Assembly: GCA_016234265.1 (NCBI GenBank)
Contig: JACRFW010000027.1
Location: 1 to 46,501 of the forward strand
Length of the DNA stretch: 46,501 bases
Source of the DNA: Candidatus Magasanikiibacteriota bacterium
GTDB taxonomy: Bacteria > Patescibacteriota > Patescibacteriia > Magasanikbacterales > GWA2-37-8
Direction of reading: 5' to 3'
The notes beneath the pieces were generated by a model that was not told where the DNA came from, made no database searches, and saw only the letters and a program-made list of their open reading frames with translations. How positions within the stretch are numbered: the stretch's first letter is position 1; every line of letters begins with the position of its first letter. The translations under genes were made by a program, and so were the position numbers. Of the stretch, positions 818 to 21,152 are shown piece by piece.

Positions 818-1320
818 AAAAACTTCCGTAATTTCTTGAGCGCCCGGTGCGCCGCCACTTTTATCGCTCCCGCGGAGGCGCCTCGCCTTTCGGCTATCTC
901 TAGATAACTATACCCAATAAGATAGTGTAGAGTTACAATTTCGGCTTCGTTTGGCTCTATTTTAGCCAATAATTCATAGACAAGGGAGGTGTCTTTGGTT
1001 TTTTGCCAAGCGTTCAAAGCCTGTTTCAACCCCAGAAACTCGGCCTCCTCTTCCTCGCCGGACTCATCAACAAAGGTCAGCGGAGTGGTAACTTTTCGAT
1101 CGCGCCAGTAATTGGCCACATGGTTCTTTGCAATCGTCATGAGCCAGGCGGCTTTGCCCATGGTCTCATCAAAGTCGGCAAAATGATCCAGGGCTTTCAG
1201 AAAAATCTCGGAAACGAGATCTTCGGCCAGTTCACGGTCGCGGCAACGGAAAAAGACAAACCGATAGATTCGATCAATGTGGTCGTTGTAAAATTTGGCA
1301 AAGTCTTTTTTACTGGCCAT
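814..1320 (-). CDS. RNA polymerase sigma factor, ECF (sigma-70 regions 2 and 4)
   Basis: Region 2-like RIYRFVFFRCRDRELAEDLVSEIFLKA and a region-4 HTH at LHYLIGYSYLEIAERRGASAGAIKVAAHRALKKL. Confidence 0.85.
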   Translation of the reverse strand: MASKKDFAKFYNDHIDRIYRFVFFRCRDRELAEDLVSEIFLKALDHFADFDETMGKAAWLMTIAKNHVANYWRDRKVTTPLTFVDESGEEEEAEFLGLKQALNAWQKTKDTSLVYELLAKIEPNEAEIVTLHYLIGYSYLEIAERRGASAGAIKVAAHRALKKLRKFL

Positions 1321-1336
1321 AGGCCTGGGCCATAGA

Positions 1337-2437
1337 TTAGATCTCGCGGCCTAATTCCTCAAGAAGTTTCCGCGCCTGTTTGCTCACTTTTTTTGGCACA
1401 TTAATTTTTACTTTTACATATTGGTCGCCACGACTGGCACTACCGATTCTGGTGATGCCACGCCCCTTGAGCCGGATAAGCTGGCCGGATTCGGTGCCAT
1501 CGGGCACGACCATTTTCACCGGGCCGTCAATGGTTTCTACAGAAATAGTGTCGCCCAGAACGGCTTGCGGAAAAGTAATTGTACTTTCCGTATAAATATC
1601 AAAATCCTCGCGATGAAATATTTTTGATGGCTTAACATGCACGCGCACATATAAATCACCCGACCCGCCACCGTGCGGAGCGGCTTCGCCGTGGCTGGTG
1701 AGACGAATGGATTGACCGGTATCAATGCCAGCCGGAATCTTGACACTGATAGTAGTATTTTTGGCGACCACGCCATCGCCGCCGCAGTGTTTGCATTTTT
1801 TAGTGGCGAACTTTCCCCGGCCATGACAGGTCGGGCAAGCTGCCACCGTCTGCATCATGCCCAGAAACGTGCGCTGTTGTTGCATCACCTGACCTTGGCC
1901 CTTACAGGTACCACAGGTATCAAGTGAACTACCTGGCTCGGCCCCCTCGCCGCGGCAGACATCGCAGGCTGATTGTTTACGCAGTGACACTTCCCGCTCC
2001 ACGCCAAAAGCGGCTTCTTTGAAATCAATTTCCACGTCTACCTGAATATCTCGGCCCTGGGATTGCCCATGCCCTCCACCACCTCGGCCGGAGCCAAAAC
2101 CAAACATCCCGCCAAACAAATCTCCCAAATCAACACCGCCAAAATCAAAACCACCGCCGCCTTGCTGGCCGCGGGCTGCACGCATAAAGTCGTCCCAATT
2201 GGCTCCGCCGCCAAAGCCGCCTTGCTGTTCAAAGTCCGAGCCAAATTGATCATAGCGCTCGCGCTTGTTCTGGTCCGAGAGCACTTGATAGGCTTCGTTT
2301 ATTTCTTTGAACTTTGCCTCATTACCACCCTGTCGGTCAGGATGGTGTTGCATCGCGAGTTTTTTGAAGGCTTTTTTTATCTCGTCAGCCGAAGCGCCCT
2401 TCTCCACGCCTAGTATTTTGTAATAGTCTTTGGGCAT
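1337..2437 (-). CDS. dnaJ: Molecular chaperone DnaJ
   Basis: J domain with HPD ([30 protein letters not shown]), a G/F-rich linker, and four CxxCxGxG zinc-finger repeats. Confidence 0.95.
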
Positions 2438-2445
2438 AGCTTCCG

Positions 2446-2868
2446 TTACGGACCAAAATAAAAATTAAACTCTTGTTGCCATTCAGCTTTAATCTCATCC
2501 TTATATTGGGGATCCGAAACTGAAGATATATTGTTAATAATGACAGCTAAACGATTCTTAAGCAGAGCACAAAAAGCCCCAGCCGACTGTTCGCCCACAT
2601 TCATGTGAACACTCGCCAGCTCCTTTACCTCTTGAGCAATTTGTCGCCCCGCACTCTCAATAACAGAATAGTCCGGTCGTTCTTGCAAAGTCGCCTCGAG
2701 CAACCTTCCATACGTATCCCACAAATCCTGATGTTTTGAATTTAACTGCCCAAAGTCAACTATCGAAGCGGCATTCAGATCTTTACCGCCGGACTTTTGA
2801 ACAATTTTTTTAATTTGTTCCCGGAATACTTCTAAACGCACCTCTGGGCTTGTTTCAAGTTCTCCCAT
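2446..2868 (-). CDS. Hypothetical protein (141 aa) inserted between dnaK and dnaJ
   Basis: The ORF was trimmed to the internal ATG (MGELET...) that begins just after the dnaK stop. There are no recognisable motifs. Confidence 0.55.
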
Positions 2869-2878
2869 AGAAAAATAA

Positions 2879-4789
2879 TTATTTCTTGTCCTTATCATCA
2901 ACGACCTCACCCTCAATTGGACCTTGGTCTTTTGGCGCTTCGCCGCCTGGAGCGGCACCTGGCTGTGGGCCTTTAGCCTGTTCTTGTTGGTACATCTTCA
3001 TGCCGACAACTTGCGCGGCCTTGGAGAGCGCTTCGGAGGTGGTCTTGATCGCTTCCACATCATCTTTGTCTTTTACTTCTTTCACTTTGGTGAGCGCGTC
3101 GTTCACCGCTTTTTTCTCGTCATCGGTCACGGTGATCTTTTTCTCTTCCACGTCTTTCATCATTTTTTCCGTGGTGTAGACCATAGTGTCGGCGATATTT
3201 TTCGCTTCAATGAGCTCTTGTTTCTTTTTGTCGTCTTCGGCGTGCATCTCGGCGTCTTTCTTCATCTTTTCAATTTCATCTTTAGACAAACCAGAGGAAG
3301 ACTCAATCTTGATGGACTGTTCTTTGTTGGTGGCCTTGTCTTTGGCCTTCACATGCAAAATGCCGTTGGCATCTATATCAAAAGAAACCTCAATTTGCGG
3401 CACGCCGCGCGGGGCCGGTGGAATGCCGGACAAATCAAATTGACCGAGAAGTTTATTATCATTGAACATTGGCCGCTCCCCTTGCGCCACCCGGATAGAC
3501 ACAGCGGGCTGATTGTCGGCAGCAGTGGAGAAAGTCTGGCTCTTGGAGGTCGGGATGGTGGTGTTGCGTTCAATAAGCTTGGTCATGACAGCACCCATGG
3601 TCTCAATACCGAGCGACAGCGGAGTAACGTCCAAGAGAAGCACGTCTTTCACATCGCCCTTCAAGACACCGCCCTGCACGGCCGCGCCAACAGCGACCAC
3701 CTCATCGGGGTTCACGGTGATATTCGGCTTTTTGCCAAAATATTTTTCCACCATGTTGTACACCAGCGGCATGCGCGTCATTCCCCCCACCATCACCACT
3801 TCATTGATCTGACTAGTGGAAAGTTTGGCATCGGCGAGAGCCTGTTTCACCGGGCCCATAGTTTTATCCACTAAATCACCAACTAATTTTTCGAGGTCAG
3901 AGCGTTTCATCTTGAGCACCAAATGGCGCGGGCCATTGGCGTCGGAAGTGATGAAAGGCTGATTGATTTCGGTTTCTTGCGAAGTGGACAGTTCAATCTT
4001 GGCTTTTTCCGCCGCTTCTTTAATGCGCTGGAGCGCAAGTTTATCTTTGCCCAAGTCAACCCCGTCAGTCTTTTTAAATTCATCAATAATCCACTGCATG
4101 ATGCGCTGGTCAAAATCGTCGCCGCCGAGGTGGGTATCGCCGTTCGTGGCCAATACCTGCACGGAATCGGCGCTCACTTCCAGCACGGACACGTCAAACG
4201 TGCCGCCGCCGAGGTCGTAGACCATAATTTTTTCGTCTTTTTTCTTATCAAAGCCATATGCGAGCGCGGCGGCGGTCGGTTCATTAATAATGCGGAGCAC
4301 TTTCAAACCGGCAATTTCACCGGCGTCCTTGGTGGCCTGGCGCTGGGAGTCGTCAAAATATGCCGGCACGGTGATCACCGCTTCGGTAATTTTTTCGCCG
4401 AGGCGCTCTTCAGCATCGGCTTTCATTTTCTGCAAAATCATGGCCGAAATTTCCTGCGGTGATTTCTCTTCACCATTGAGAACCACCTTCACTCCGTCGC
4501 CCGCGCGTACAATCTTGTACGGCATCACTTTCAAATCGCGTTGCACCTCGGCATCATCCCACTTGCGGCCAATCAGGCGCTTGATGGAATAGAGCGTATT
4601 TTCCGGATTAGTAACTGACTGGCGCTTGGCCAGCTGCCCCACCAATCGCTCGCCGGTCTTGCTCACCGCGACGATGGAGGGCGTGGTGCGCGCGCCTTCT
4701 TTATTTTCCAACACCTTGGGCTGTCCGCCTTCAATGATGGCGACACAGGAATTGGTGGTTCCGAGGTCGATTCCGAGTACTTTGCTCAT
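2879..4789 (-). CDS. dnaK: Molecular chaperone DnaK (Hsp70)
   Basis: Hsp70 signatures [16 protein letters not shown] and [10 protein letters not shown] over a full-length 636 aa. Confidence 0.97.
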
Positions 4790-4980
4790 ATAATATACTT
4801 ATTTAATTCTTAAAATTTTATCTTCACTTTTTACTTCTGGACTTTCTGGGTTTGGCATACTTTATTTACAGATATTAATGGCGGAACTTGACAAATCTTT
4901 ATACTGTGCTATACTATCTTTAATCACGATGAGAGGACTACCAAAGGGTTTCGTCCCGCGGGAATGCCTCTTTAGACAAT

Positions 4981-18007: not shown

Positions 18008-18045
18008 ACTCGTACTTTTTTAAAAAATGAATAAAGACCTGCTGA

Positions 18046-18093
18046 TACTATACCTAGTGATATAAAAGTATCCTATTCCACTAGGTATAGTGT
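18046..18093. promoter_or_regulatory. Tandem NrdR-box-like operators (two 16-bp palindromic boxes, centres about 32 bp apart) in the nrdD promoter
   Basis: On the minus strand the boxes read ACACTATACCTAGTGG and TCACTAGGTATAGTAT, against the consensus acaCwAtATaTwGtgt. The arms form a perfect 13-bp inverted repeat with each other. They overlap the TGgTATACT extended -10. Confidence 0.5.
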
Positions 18094-18193
18094 TATAGAT
18101 AGTATACCACAAAATGAAAAAAAGAGTTATCCACAAGGTCATTCAACCTTGCGGGCAGCTCATCTGACCAGGCGAGTGGCCCGCGCGGACGGA

Positions 18194-18589
18194 CTACATG
18201 AAAAAATGATAGACCACCCGATAGGCGGCAATAAGCAAGAGCCAGTAGATAGAATGCTCCAGATCAATAAGGCCGCGGTAATTAAACCGGCCACCACGAT
18301 ATCTCCATAGGCGCCGCTTCAAAACGGCCAGCATAACCAGGCCGGAAACCAGCTCCAAAAGAACGGCCAGGATGGCGCCAAACAGCACCTGCAGAACGGC
18401 CGGCAGTGGAGTATACACAAAGACCACGTCCAGCACCACCGCGCCCACGCCATAAATAATTGAAAAGAATGGGATGAGCGTGCCGGGCGCGTAGCGCTTG
18501 TCCGCATAAAACCGAAAGCCGGTATCCAAAATCCAGCCTAAAAAACCACCAAAGATAAAGATATAAAGATAATAGAACGGGGTAGTCAT
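18194..18589 (-). CDS. Hypothetical integral membrane protein (131 aa, 4 TM)
   Basis: Hydrophobic helices only. It is the first gene of the nrd operon on the minus strand. Confidence 0.55.
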   Translation of the reverse strand: MTTPFYYLYIFIFGGFLGWILDTGFRFYADKRYAPGTLIPFFSIIYGVGAVVLDVVFVYTPLPAVLQVLFGAILAVLLELVSGLVMLAVLKRRLWRYRGGRFNYRGLIDLEHSIYWLLLIAAYRVVYHFFM

Positions 18590-18763: not shown

Positions 18764-18792
18764 TTGATTTTCGGGAAATTTTCGGGTATAAT
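18764..18792 (+). promoter_or_regulatory. Sigma70 promoter (TTGATT, 17 nt, TATAAT) for the LexA-methyltransferase gene, with a 9-bp direct repeat ATTTTCGGG x2 in the spacer
   Basis: tTTGATTttcgggaaattttcgggTATAAT lies about 40 nt upstream of the ATG. Confidence 0.6.
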
Positions 18793-18832
18793 ATAACTAC
18801 CTAAAATCACCCCAAAATAAGTTCAACGAAAT

Positions 18833-20359
18833 ATGCAATCGCCAACCAGAAAACAGAAGGAGGTTTTGGATTTTATAACTTCTTACATAAATAAGCACAG
18901 CATATCCCCCACCATTGAGGAAGTGGCGAGGCGCCTTAAACGCGCGATTGGCACAATACACGAACATATGGAAGAACTGGCGGAAAAGGGATTAATCAAA
19001 AAAAATAATTCTGCTCGTGGTGTTGAAGTTGTGCAAAATGATAGTTTAATCAAAATACCATTACTCGGAACCATAGCGGCGGGTCAGCCCATAGAAGCAA
19101 TTAAAGAAAGAGAGGCCATAGCCGTACCCCAAAGTAAACTGCCTAACTCCGGTAATTTCTATGCCCTGAAAGTAGTCGGTAATAGCATGACTGAAGAGAA
19201 TATCAACGATGGCGACGTTGTGCTAGTCAAACAGCAGAGCGCAGCTGATAACGGACAAAGGGTTGTGGCCTTAATTGATAATTACGAAACTACATTAAAA
19301 AAAATGTACAAAGAAAAAAGGCATATCAGGCTGCAACCGGCCAACAAAACAATGAGCCCCATAATTATTTCTAGACAAACTCCGTTCGCGATACAAGGCA
19401 TCGTGATTGATGTGATAAAAAATGATGAGAATGCCTTTTTAGAAGAACCAATTACATCAAGAAAAATCAAAAGAAATACTGCGCTGCCTTTAAACCAAAT
19501 TATTTTAAATGATGCAACTGAAGAGCTACGGAAGCTTCCGAATGAAAGTTGCGATGTCGTCATAATTGATCCACCATATAATATCGGCAAGGATTTTGGA
19601 AACAACATTGATAAACGAGAGCTGAACGAATACATCGCATGGTGCAAAGAATGGATCGGCGAAAGTATCCGAACAATGAAACCGACGGGGACAATGTTTA
19701 TTTACGGTTTCAGTGAAATTCTTGCTCATCTTTCTGTTGAAATCCCCATAAACAAACGCTGGCTTATCTGGCACTACACAAATAAAAATGTCGCCTCTCT
19801 TAATTTTTGGCAGAGAAGCCATGAAGCAATTATCTGTGCCTGGAAAGATAAGCCGGTTTTCAATAGAGACGAGGTCAGAGAGCCATACACGGAAGGATTT
19901 TTGAACGGGGCGGCTGGTAAAATAAGAAAAGGAACAGTTGGTAGATTTAGCAAGGGTGGATTAGAAACTATCTACAAGGCGCACGAGGGCGGCGCTTTGC
20001 CAAGAGATGTTATAAAAATACCAGCCCTGGCTGGAGGGGCTGGTATGAATGAAAGGTGGTTTATTTGTAAAACTTGCGGAGGAAATATTTTTGAGCCGAG
20101 AGAACTTAAAAAACACATCGACCACAAAATTATTAAACACCCGACACAAAAACCGCTGGAGCTATGTAGGAAATTGATCAGATCATCGGCGCCCAAGAAA
20201 GATGGGGTGGTTCTAGTGCCTTTTGTCGGCACAGGAGCCGAATGCGCGGCCGCAAAAGAATTAAATCAAAACTATATCGGTTTTGAGATTAATCCTGACT
20301 ATGTGAAGATCGCTGAAAAAACCATTTCTTCTGTAAAGGTGACACCAAAATTATTTTAG
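18833..20359 (+). CDS. Fusion protein: LexA-like repressor (winged HTH plus S24 self-cleaving peptidase) fused to a beta-class N6A/N4C DNA methyltransferase
   Basis: N-terminus: HTH, the Ala-Gly cleavage site GTIAAGQPIEA, the Ser in GNSM and the Lys in TLKKMY. C-terminus: DPPY (motif IV) in VVIIDPPYNIG, HPTQKP, and FxGxG (motif I) in PFVGTGAECAAAKEL. It is a single uninterrupted ORF. Confidence 0.85.
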   Translation: MQSPTRKQKEVLDFITSYINKHSISPTIEEVARRLKRAIGTIHEHMEELAEKGLIKKNNSARGVEVVQNDSLIKIPLLGTIAAGQPIEAIKEREAIAVPQSKLPNSGNFYALKVVGNSMTEENINDGDVVLVKQQSAADNGQRVVALIDNYETTLKKMYKEKRHIRLQPANKTMSPIIISRQTPFAIQGIVIDVIKNDENAFLEEPITSRKIKRNTALPLNQIILNDATEELRKLPNESCDVVIIDPPYNIGKDFGNNIDKRELNEYIAWCKEWIGESIRTMKPTGTMFIYGFSEILAHLSVEIPINKRWLIWHYTNKNVASLNFWQRSHEAIICAWKDKPVFNRDEVREPYTEGFLNGAAGKIRKGTVGRFSKGGLETIYKAHEGGALPRDVIKIPALAGGAGMNERWFICKTCGGNIFEPRELKKHIDHKIIKHPTQKPLELCRKLIRSSAPKKDGVVLVPFVGTGAECAAAKELNQNYIGFEINPDYVKIAEKTISSVKVTPKLF

Positions 20360-21062: not shown

Positions 21063-21152
21063 TGGCGGAAGGGAGGAGATTTGAACTCCTGAAGGTTTTG
21101 ACACCTTGCGTGCTTTCCAAGCACGTGCACTAGACCGCTATGCGACCCTTCC
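21063..21152 (-). tRNA. tRNA-Ser (anticodon GGA), type II with long variable arm; CCA encoded
   Basis: Manual fold: 7-bp acceptor, 3-bp D stem, anticodon loop UU-GGA-AA, a 16-nt variable arm, and T loop TTCAAAT. Confidence 0.85.

Follow-up and report, generated by a model that had tools for sequence, protein, structure and literature searches.

A 46,501-nt stretch of DNA from Candidatus Magasanikiibacteriota bacterium (GenBank assembly GCA_016234265.1, contig JACRFW010000027.1), referred to hereafter as the window, was analysed around a gene in which a LexA repressor is joined in frame to a DNA methyltransferase (MTase). The fusion gene is preceded by a DnaA-box-like site and by a promoter with a tandem direct repeat in its spacer. 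Downstream lie a convergent gene for a TaqI-family Type II endonuclease and a tRNA-Ser gene (Table 1).

Table 1. Features of the fusion locus, in window coordinates
Feature	Position	Strand	Basis and remarks
DnaA-box-like site TGTGGATAA	18747..18755	+	Reverse complement of the consensus DnaA box TTATCCACA; ends ~31 nt before the -10
Sigma-70-type promoter TTGATT-17-TATAAT	18764..18792	+	Promoter scan, 10/12 matches
Probable operator, tandem direct repeat ATTTTCGGG-AA-ATTTTCGGG	18767..18786	+	11-bp period (TTTC-N7-TTTC); fills the spacer
LexA-S24-MTase fusion gene	18833..20359	+	508 aa; ATG start; no internal stops
LexA winged-helix DNA-binding domain, aa 1-65	18833..19027	+	Pfam LexA_DNA_bind and AlphaFold helices
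S24 peptidase and dimerisation domain, aa 76-197	19058..19423	+	Pfam Peptidase_S24
Predicted scissile bond, Ala83-Gly84 codons	19079..19084	+	Alignment; equivalent to Ala84-Gly85 in E. coli LexA
Ser118 codon	19184..19186	+	S24 dyad
Lys156 codon	19298..19300	+	S24 dyad
Flexible inter-domain linker, aa 198-220	19424..19492	+	Low conservation and low predicted local distance difference test score (pLDDT)
Beta-class DNA methyltransferase, aa 221-508	19493..20356	+	Pfam N6_N4_Mtase, PADLOC MTase_II
TaqI-family Type II endonuclease gene, 231 aa	20351..21046	-	Pfam RE_TaqI (E 2.7e-37), PADLOC REase_II
tRNA-Ser(GGA)	21063..21152	-	ARAGORN and Rfam; right edge of low-GC island

All three parts of the protein were matched in Pfam: LexA_DNA_bind (PF01726) at residues 1-60 (E 1.4e-11), Peptidase_S24 (PF00717) at residues 76-192 (E 4e-29) and N6_N4_Mtase (PF01555) at residues 241-496 (E 1.1e-37). 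These were the families for which a first-pass annotation, a model's reading of the sequence alone, had proposed an HMMER check. The open reading frame (ORF), the Pfam matches and the score with the NCBIfam lexA equivalog TIGR00498 (165.9 bits against a curated cut-off of 110.95) agree with the single 508-aa frame of winged helix-turn-helix (wHTH), S24 and MTase domains that it described. The LexA part is collinear with the E. coli LexA structure (query 2-198 against 1jhf 2-199) and, over the first 198 residues, with the Thermotoga LexA crystal structure. Being 508 aa long and ending in an MTase, the protein is not a stand-alone LexA of ~200 aa. GTIHEHMEEL (aa 40-49) marks the approximate place of the wHTH recognition helix. 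Inspection of the sequence together with the family alignment puts the predicted scissile Ala83-Gly84 in LLGTIAAGQPIEA, and the S24 dyad is formed by Ser118 in GNSM and Lys156 in TLKKMY; the first pass had pointed to the same residues, which proved invariant across the alignment.

In the MTase part, DPPY occupies aa 246-249 (nt 19568-19579), HPTQKP aa 436-441 and FVGTG aa 464-468 (nt 20222-20236). Motif IV (DPPY) lies ahead of motif I (FVGTG) and the target-recognition region separates the two, as is typical of the beta class; together with the PF01555 match this bears out the class assigned earlier from DPPY, FxGxG and HPTQKP. PDB relatives of this part include M.MboIIA and M.RsrI. The best NCBIfam MTase match is the adenine-specific PRK11524, which falls below that model's own cut-off (133.5 against 292 bits).

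The MTase directly follows the LexA part, as had been stated, but the gap between them, put at 15 aa, is nearer 20 aa: the S24 domain ends at about residue 197 and the MTase fold begins at about 220. Conservation within the protein is lowest in this stretch (mean top-residue frequency 0.63 in the family alignment). In an AlphaFold model built on 31 homologues, the wHTH, S24 and MTase cores were confident, with wHTH helices at 6-22, 28-35 and 39-51 (pLDDT 81-93). Confidence was low in the cleavage loop (83-92), the linker (198-211, pLDDT below 50) and the target-recognition region. The predicted template-modelling score was 0.50 and no fixed inter-domain arrangement was present. The model fits what three independently folded modules joined by flexible tethers would look like.

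Recurrence and conservation of the fusion

Relatives of the fusion were sought among 5.8 billion proteins. At least 120 clusters carried the same three domains, at lengths of 501-520 aa and 69-79% identity, and their source bins were nearly all Patescibacteria, the candidate phyla radiation (CPR), including Kuenenbacteria, Moranbacteria, Paceibacterota, Minisyncoccales and others. The search for further S24-MTase fusions recommended by the first-pass annotation thus yielded a large family, whose members are named in the databases either 'transcriptional repressor LexA' or 'site-specific DNA-methyltransferase'. When each GTDB species was represented by one genome, a scan found 43 loci; the fusion is carried by about 40 genome loci. 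The host of the window also belongs to Patescibacteria, its NrdD sharing 74-91% identity with proteins of Magasanikbacteria and Moranbacteria.

In metagenome assemblies there is always the general possibility that a lexA gene and an MTase gene have been joined by a sequencing or assembly frameshift. We exclude such an artefact, the probability of which is negligible, on the strength of the recurrence of the in-frame fusion in these clusters, from many independent projects, and at these loci. In addition, the length of the linker is conserved and the whole ORF is under purifying selection.

Across the loci the MTase part is 79-88% identical, the endonuclease 55-77% and the LexA part 50-69%. Ala83, Gly84, Ser118 and Lys156 are nevertheless invariant in 155/155 aligned family members, and the same Ala-Gly, Ser and Lys columns are invariant in 47/47 distant LexA-MTase fusions. 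For nine pairs of close relatives, the ratio of nonsynonymous to synonymous substitution rates in the LexA part ranges from 0.03 to 0.13, and in most pairs it is at or below the value for the MTase part. Invariant residues despite divergence, together with these low ratios, indicate that the LexA half is functional and constrained and that its proteolytic machinery has been kept.

A phage origin of the fusion was considered and rejected. A single-sequence scan of viral contigs gave nothing, and a profile scan gave MTase-only homologues; the LexA part was present in none of the 80 viral MTase homologues kept from the profile scan (L046-L125, IMG/VR contigs). Homologues of this kind, which span residues 165/222 to ~505 with 48-57% identity, are common in IMG/VR, and many of their contigs bear the label GVMAG, which we take to denote giant-virus bins.

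Promoter, operator and DnaA-box-like site

The promoter scan recovered the TTGATT-17-TATAAT promoter of the first pass, including the 9-bp repeat in its spacer that had been put forward as a candidate operator for the N-terminal domain. Just two exact copies of the repeat unit ATTTTCGGG exist in the window; they lie 11 bp from each other, at 18767 and 18778, and both fall inside the spacer. An equivalent -10 is found at the same place in related loci. When the 130 nt upstream of the start codon were compared across 40 loci, a fixed layout emerged within unrelated flanks: TGTGGATAA, ~13 nt, an 11-bp-period repeat abutting the -10, and a TATAAT-like hexamer. The 11-bp-period repeat is at the spacer position in essentially all loci.

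The half-site of the repeat varies with the recognition helix. Helices reading HEH, HQH or SEH go with the half-site TTCGG(G/T), which is TTCGGG in the window; AHFH goes with TTTCTAT, DFY with TTCTAGT and AHKH with TTCAC(T/C)T. Several operators read (G/T)TTC-N7-(G/T)TTC. The LexA of Alphaproteobacteria binds the direct repeat GTTC-N7-GTTC (PMC4951493, PMC8565304), a box that the window operator resembles; the LexA box of Verrucomicrobia is palindromic, according to a published paper.

Each locus, with flanks of 6-10 kb sought per side and often less near contig ends, was searched with its own half-site pair. At 0-1 mismatch, matches were found only at the fusion's own promoter. Within these loci, further operator copies that would point to control of a regulon, or of the endonuclease promoter or the promoters of the C-protein genes described below, were not found, two mismatches giving only noise. 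Half-site/helix covariation, fixed position and restriction to its own promoter identify the repeat as the probable operator of the N-terminal domain, and so bear out the earlier suggestion. We conclude that there is strong comparative evidence that the N-terminal domain binds the spacer repeat and represses its own promoter.

The site TGTGGATAA is found in exact form 47-86 nt upstream of the start codon in 32/40 fusion loci with differing flanks, and there are 48 exact copies in 477 kb as compared with 3.6 expected. It also precedes LexA fusions to C5, gamma and Dam-like MTases. In one locus (L131) it is inverted and present twice, and in L136 and L018 it is replaced by the relaxed DnaA-box variant TGTGAATAA; its inversion and this variant make a role as a -35-like element less likely. 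It may instead be bound by DnaA. The only other exact copy of TGTGGATAA/TTATCCACA in the window is at 18127-18135 (-), ~120 nt upstream of nrdD. Through this box the cassette and nrdD may be coupled to DnaA and the state of replication; alternatively, another conserved host factor may bind there. Any role of the box in the cassette is speculative.

No Shine-Dalgarno sequence is present at 18815-18832 of the window or in the equivalent 5' untranslated regions of L001-L035 and L128. Instead, a GTCAA(T/C) element located about 5-10 nt ahead of the ATG is conserved in most fusion genes and takes the form GTTCAAC in the window.

Fusion partners, restriction genes and genomic setting

When the LexA part alone was searched against 1.84 billion 50%-identity cluster representatives, about three-quarters of the best ~55 matches (45-67% identity) were proteins of 390-890 aa with an N-terminal LexA. 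The shorter ones among these were partial gene calls (P0150) or stand-alone copies (e.g. P0122), and ordinary 200-aa LexAs began only at ~45% identity. In a neighbour-joining tree of 138 LexA domains, 49 of them from fusions, the ladderised leaf order placed the fusions almost contiguously at one end and the stand-alone LexAs at the other. The largest clade below the root that contained the window protein had 46 leaves and 37/49 fusions. All 47 long representatives scanned (47/47) had LexA_DNA_bind and Peptidase_S24; their C-terminal Pfam matches, which overlap, were to N6_N4_Mtase (32), Eco57I/N6_Mtase of the gamma class (7), D12/Dam-like (5) and C5 DNA_methylase (2).

The promoter design described above is common to L126, L128, L129 and L131, and recognisable restriction genes adjoin three of them. 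L126 encodes a LexA-C5 MTase, L128 a LexA-Eco57I-type MTase with a second MTase and an Alw26I-family endonuclease, and L129 a LexA-Dam-like MTase with an AlwI-family endonuclease. In L131 (1125-2551, +), a stand-alone LexA of 213 aa, 60% identical to the window LexA part, is encoded 15 nt upstream of the gene for a DpnI-family methyl-dependent endonuclease and has a perfect TGTTCGGT-N3-TGTTCGGT operator. This arrangement indicates that the LexA module is linked to restriction enzymes generally, beyond MTases. L017 (5995-9381, +) encodes a triple fusion of 1129 aa, LexA with a beta-MTase and then a gamma-MTase bearing TaqI_C, and has no TaqI-like endonuclease gene next to it. L030 contains two unlike LexA-MTase fusions, the additional one (2937-4799, +) being ~3 kb upstream of the other.

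A few relatives have lost part or all of the LexA half. In L038, L040 and L042 the LexA wHTH is fused to the MTase, S24 is absent and the direct-repeat operator is retained; in L039 and L041 the MTase stands alone. That wHTH-only variants keep the operator indicates that autoregulation is the base function and S24 an added layer, which is usually retained and whose catalytic residues are always intact. The wHTH-only proteins are essentially regulatory MTases of the M.SsoII kind. Such helix-turn-helix (HTH)-fused MTases are an established category, in which the N-terminal domain binds an operator in the MTase promoter and autorepresses (PMC12707154, PMC3874152); the statement in the first-pass annotation that they are known in restriction-modification (R-M) systems is supported by the former. 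M.SsoII, M.Ecl18kI, M.EcoRII, M.MspI and M.ScrFIA likewise have a DNA-binding domain fused N-terminally to the MTase. Unlike these, the window protein has a full LexA as its regulator, with a winged helix and an S24 domain with intact catalytic residues, and its operator, a direct repeat with a period of 11 bp, lies within the promoter spacer. The genes in the window are convergent rather than divergent, and the partner MTases of the LexA fusions are of all classes rather than C5 only.

The operator data would be explained by autoregulation alone, and the variants without S24, or without LexA altogether, show that the system works without S24. The LexA part of the window protein might accordingly serve in DNA binding and dimerisation only, much as in M.SsoII, with RecA cleavage having no physiological role. 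Pure dimerisation, however, leaves unexplained why Ala-Gly, Ser and Lys are invariant in both sets of fusions amid divergence to 45-50% identity, as well as the strong purifying selection on the LexA part, and we consider a non-inducible autoregulator rather unlikely.

The adjacent endonuclease mentioned in the first pass belongs to the RE_TaqI family and is a conserved partner, making the two genes an R-M pair. They converge with their 3' ends overlapping by 9 nt, and a convergent RE_TaqI partner is also present in ~35 related loci whose flanks otherwise differ. The + strand showed no terminator-like site between the MTase and endonuclease genes or beyond them. The tetranucleotide TCGA occurs 20 times in the window as compared with 128.7 expected, a ratio of 0.155 (6.4-fold depleted) and by far the lowest of all 16 four-base palindromes; it is likewise the most avoided in the pooled related loci (ratio 0.44). 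Depletion of TCGA extends to close relatives (L135, L136) in which a different LexA-MTase, with TaqI_C, is present. The depletion in the window bears the signature of a long-resident, active TCGA-specific system. Taken with the RE_TaqI partner and the sub-cut-off PRK11524 match, it suggests that the MTase probably methylates adenine at N6 within TCGA.

With the TaqI system, which recognizes TCGA, the cassette shares an RE_TaqI-family endonuclease and strong TCGA avoidance in host DNA. M.TaqI, a gamma-class MTase with TaqI_C, differs from the beta-class N6_N4 MTase of the window; LexA is fused to a gamma-class, TaqI_C-bearing MTase in L136 and L017. In 14/35 relatives a 72-aa Xre-type C-protein gene lies directly upstream of the endonuclease gene (e.g. 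L003 8212-8430, -) and matches HTH_3 and the PDB entry for C.BclI. These loci share a C-R unit convergent with the MTase gene with C-controlled systems of the Esp1396I type (C.BclI, C.PvuII-like); unlike in that type, control of the MTase would fall to the repressor fused to it and not to C. The C gene is absent from the window copy, where the endonuclease gene begins 16 nt past the tRNA-Ser; this indicates that the endonuclease gene has lost, or never had, C control.

The cassette lies in an island of low GC content (~0.40 across 18-21 kb, as compared with ~0.53 in both flanks). The 3' end of the tRNA-Ser is 16 nt before the endonuclease ATG, with a TATAAT 5 nt ahead of this start codon. On the endonuclease side, 8/35 loci have a tRNA no more than 400 nt away, and in all eight (the window, L004, L006, L010, L012, L028, L029 and L042) it is a tRNA-Ser, with differing other flanks; two of the eight bear a second tRNA, Arg or Glu. 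This suggests integration beside tRNA-Ser and an endonuclease expressed by read-through or as a leaderless transcript. To the left of the cassette, the window resembles the close relative L136, whose NrdD is 91% identical, at the nucleotide level up to about 18727, 20 nt short of TGTGGATAA. At this site, likewise adjoining a cmpB-like gene and nrdD, L136 carries a different fusion of 888 aa, LexA with a gamma-class MTase and TaqI_C (854-3520, -), with a convergent 235-aa ORF beyond it that has no Pfam match. An in-situ swap of the MTase behind a resident LexA was rejected on the grounds that the L136 LexA part is only 47% identical to that of the window and that synteny ends ~20 nt before the promoter. 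The two cassettes look like independent insertions with no domain swapping, and the intergenic site, near the cmpB-like gene and nrdD, is apparently a hot spot for LexA-MTase cassettes.

These data bear on whether the fusion could be the host's true SOS master repressor, acting on recA, uvr and other genes with the MTase as a passenger or effector domain. The fusion is collinear with LexA (TIGR00498; 1jhf, 3jso, 3k2z) over the full length of the latter, shares its Ala-Gly site and Ser/Lys dyad, and scores above the equivalog cut-off. It is also named LexA by NCBI, a second lexA was not seen in the window, and Patescibacteria genomes are small. Unlike LexA, the fusion has a 310-aa C-terminal linker and MTase, and it apparently regulates itself alone, operator copies having been found only at its own promoter in the window and in every locus examined. 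Closely related MTases bear LexA modules of differing operator specificity, L030 has two different fusions, and the near relative L136 has a different one at the same site. The gene sits in a low-GC island and its genomic position is variable; the fused modules cluster apart from stand-alone LexAs, in a clade almost entirely MTase-fused or restriction-linked. We therefore consider a role as master repressor unlikely.

Some further features of the window lie to the left of the cassette. Between the -10 and the start of nrdD, at 18040-18105 (-), two imperfect palindromes, aACACTATACCTAGTGg and ATCACTAGGTATAGTAt, are separated by ~40 nt and resemble paired NrdR boxes. The segment 18625-18726 (-), which precedes the cmpB-like membrane gene (18194-18589), contains a strong promoter-like TTGACA-17-TATACT with a TG and, ~45 nt on, a 12-bp GC-rich hairpin with a T-run. 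It had no Rfam match and could be an attenuator, a riboswitch or a small RNA. The Rfam scan of the window gave two tRNAs and nothing else.

Proposed function and significance

We propose that the cassette is a two-gene, TaqI-like Type II R-M system whose MTase is a LexA-bearing, autorepressed and damage-inducible regulator of its own synthesis, an account that we lean towards and place just on the probable side. By analogy with established LexA biology, the LexA part would dimerise through S24, bind the spacer repeat and keep MTase expression low. Filaments of RecA on single-stranded DNA (ssDNA), which could result from DNA damage, repair synthesis or the endonuclease's own cutting at unmethylated sites, would trigger the S24 cut at Ala83-Gly84. 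Cleavage would release the wHTH from the dimer, the promoter would be derepressed and the MTase would rise; the genes being convergent without a terminator between them, antisense transcription into the endonuclease gene would also increase. On this account the net effect, which is speculative, would be protection of the chromosome upon damage: newly synthesised or under-methylated DNA would be methylated, with negative feedback on self-restriction. The first-pass annotation had likewise suggested a boost of protective methylation during repair synthesis.

Several points weigh against this account. We infer cleavage, operator binding and induction alike, as well as the specificity for TCGA. 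The LexA layer is dispensable, in that 14/35 relatives use a C protein and a few have lost S24 or the whole LexA. No recA was found by a Walker-A signature search of the window or the fetched flanks, and a second, canonical lexA may be present in the carrier genomes beyond the 10-kb flanks. Finally, the S24-MTase fragment, if degraded after cleavage, would give the opposite of protection.

This last point leads to a damage-triggered suicide, of the abortive infection or addiction type, in which cleavage would mark the MTase for proteolysis, methylation would fall and a stable endonuclease would kill the damaged or infected cell. What separates it from the protective account is solely the fate of the 84-508 fragment. 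In favour of suicide, both fragments of cleaved E. coli LexA are substrates of proteases (ClpXP/Lon). The predicted N-terminal fragment ends in ...IAA, resembling the degrons VAA and LAA, and Type II R-M systems are known addiction modules (PMC3874152). Cleavage would, however, simultaneously derepress the synthesis of new, full-length, active MTase. The MTase fold is apparently left untouched, with the linker and domains independent in the AlphaFold model, and the strong, long-term avoidance of TCGA indicates a stably maintained defence system. We therefore regard suicide as unlikely.

Protection upon damage would be the Type II counterpart of restriction alleviation. In Type I systems, ClpXP-dependent degradation of HsdR relaxes restriction of the cell's own chromosome after damage (PMC12707154). 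The outcome would be the same, reached by self-cleavage of an MTase-fused repressor rather than by host proteolysis of HsdR; a comparable Type II mechanism is absent from that review. Sensing of host DNA damage by mobile elements through S24 repressors has its own precedent. The fusion can be set beside lambda CI and SetR of an integrative and conjugative element, which undergo RecA-activated self-cleavage. Those repressors stand alone, have an Xre-type HTH and control lysogeny or transfer, whereas the window repressor is of the LexA type and is covalently joined to the enzyme that it regulates.

The first-pass annotation held that a fusion of this kind was not a described arrangement. None was found in the literature searched, which did not extend to Sanchez-Osuna et al. 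(2017) on the SOS network of Patescibacteria; the proteins themselves are already in databases under generic names. The term 'LexA' occurs zero times in the 2025 EcoSal Plus review of R-M systems (PMC12707154), and the fusion is not mentioned in a 2013 review of their regulation (PMC3874152), in a 2026 preprint on CPR methyltransferases or in a preprint on MTase classification. A regulatory MTase that is inducible through cleavage is described in neither review. HTH-fused regulatory MTases, LexA, C proteins and TaqI-type systems are known already. New are a complete and, as predicted from sequence, self-cleaving LexA fused to an MTase, and a Patescibacteria-centred family of such fusions with all MTase classes and private operators. 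The labels 'LexA' and 'adenine methyltransferase' both fail to convey the nature of the protein, and the annotation needs correction.

A Type II system requires a methylase level low enough that phage DNA gains no protection and high enough to guard its own chromosome. The solutions known to us are C proteins, HTH-fused methylases and antisense RNAs, none of which, to our knowledge, senses DNA damage. If the proposal is true, a RecA-cleavable repressor on the methylase closes the loop, with self-inflicted or external damage directly raising modification. A broader reading, to which we attach somewhat less than even confidence, is that a LexA clade of Patescibacteria has been captured by R-M systems. 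The DnaA-box-like promoter, the private direct-repeat operator and the self-cleaving LexA would form a portable module, combined with all MTase classes and once with a DpnI-type enzyme, that couples R-M dosage to the RecA signal and possibly to replication status. On that reading, Type II systems would here have their first restriction alleviation circuit responsive to damage, and selfish or defence elements would have diversified LexA specificity so as to avoid cross-talk.

Natural LexA variants with matched operators (TTCGGG, TTCGGT, TTCTAT, TTCTAGT, TTCACC) would be useful for the study of recognition evolution and direct-repeat binding. Cleavage assays and electrophoretic mobility shift assays would provide a simple in vitro test system for proteins of uncultured organisms. 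Patescibacteria are reported to have few CRISPR systems and to rely heavily on restriction-modification. Given this reliance and the size of a family found nearly only in Patescibacteria, the LexA-MTase fusion may be a major regulatory theme in a large share of bacterial diversity.

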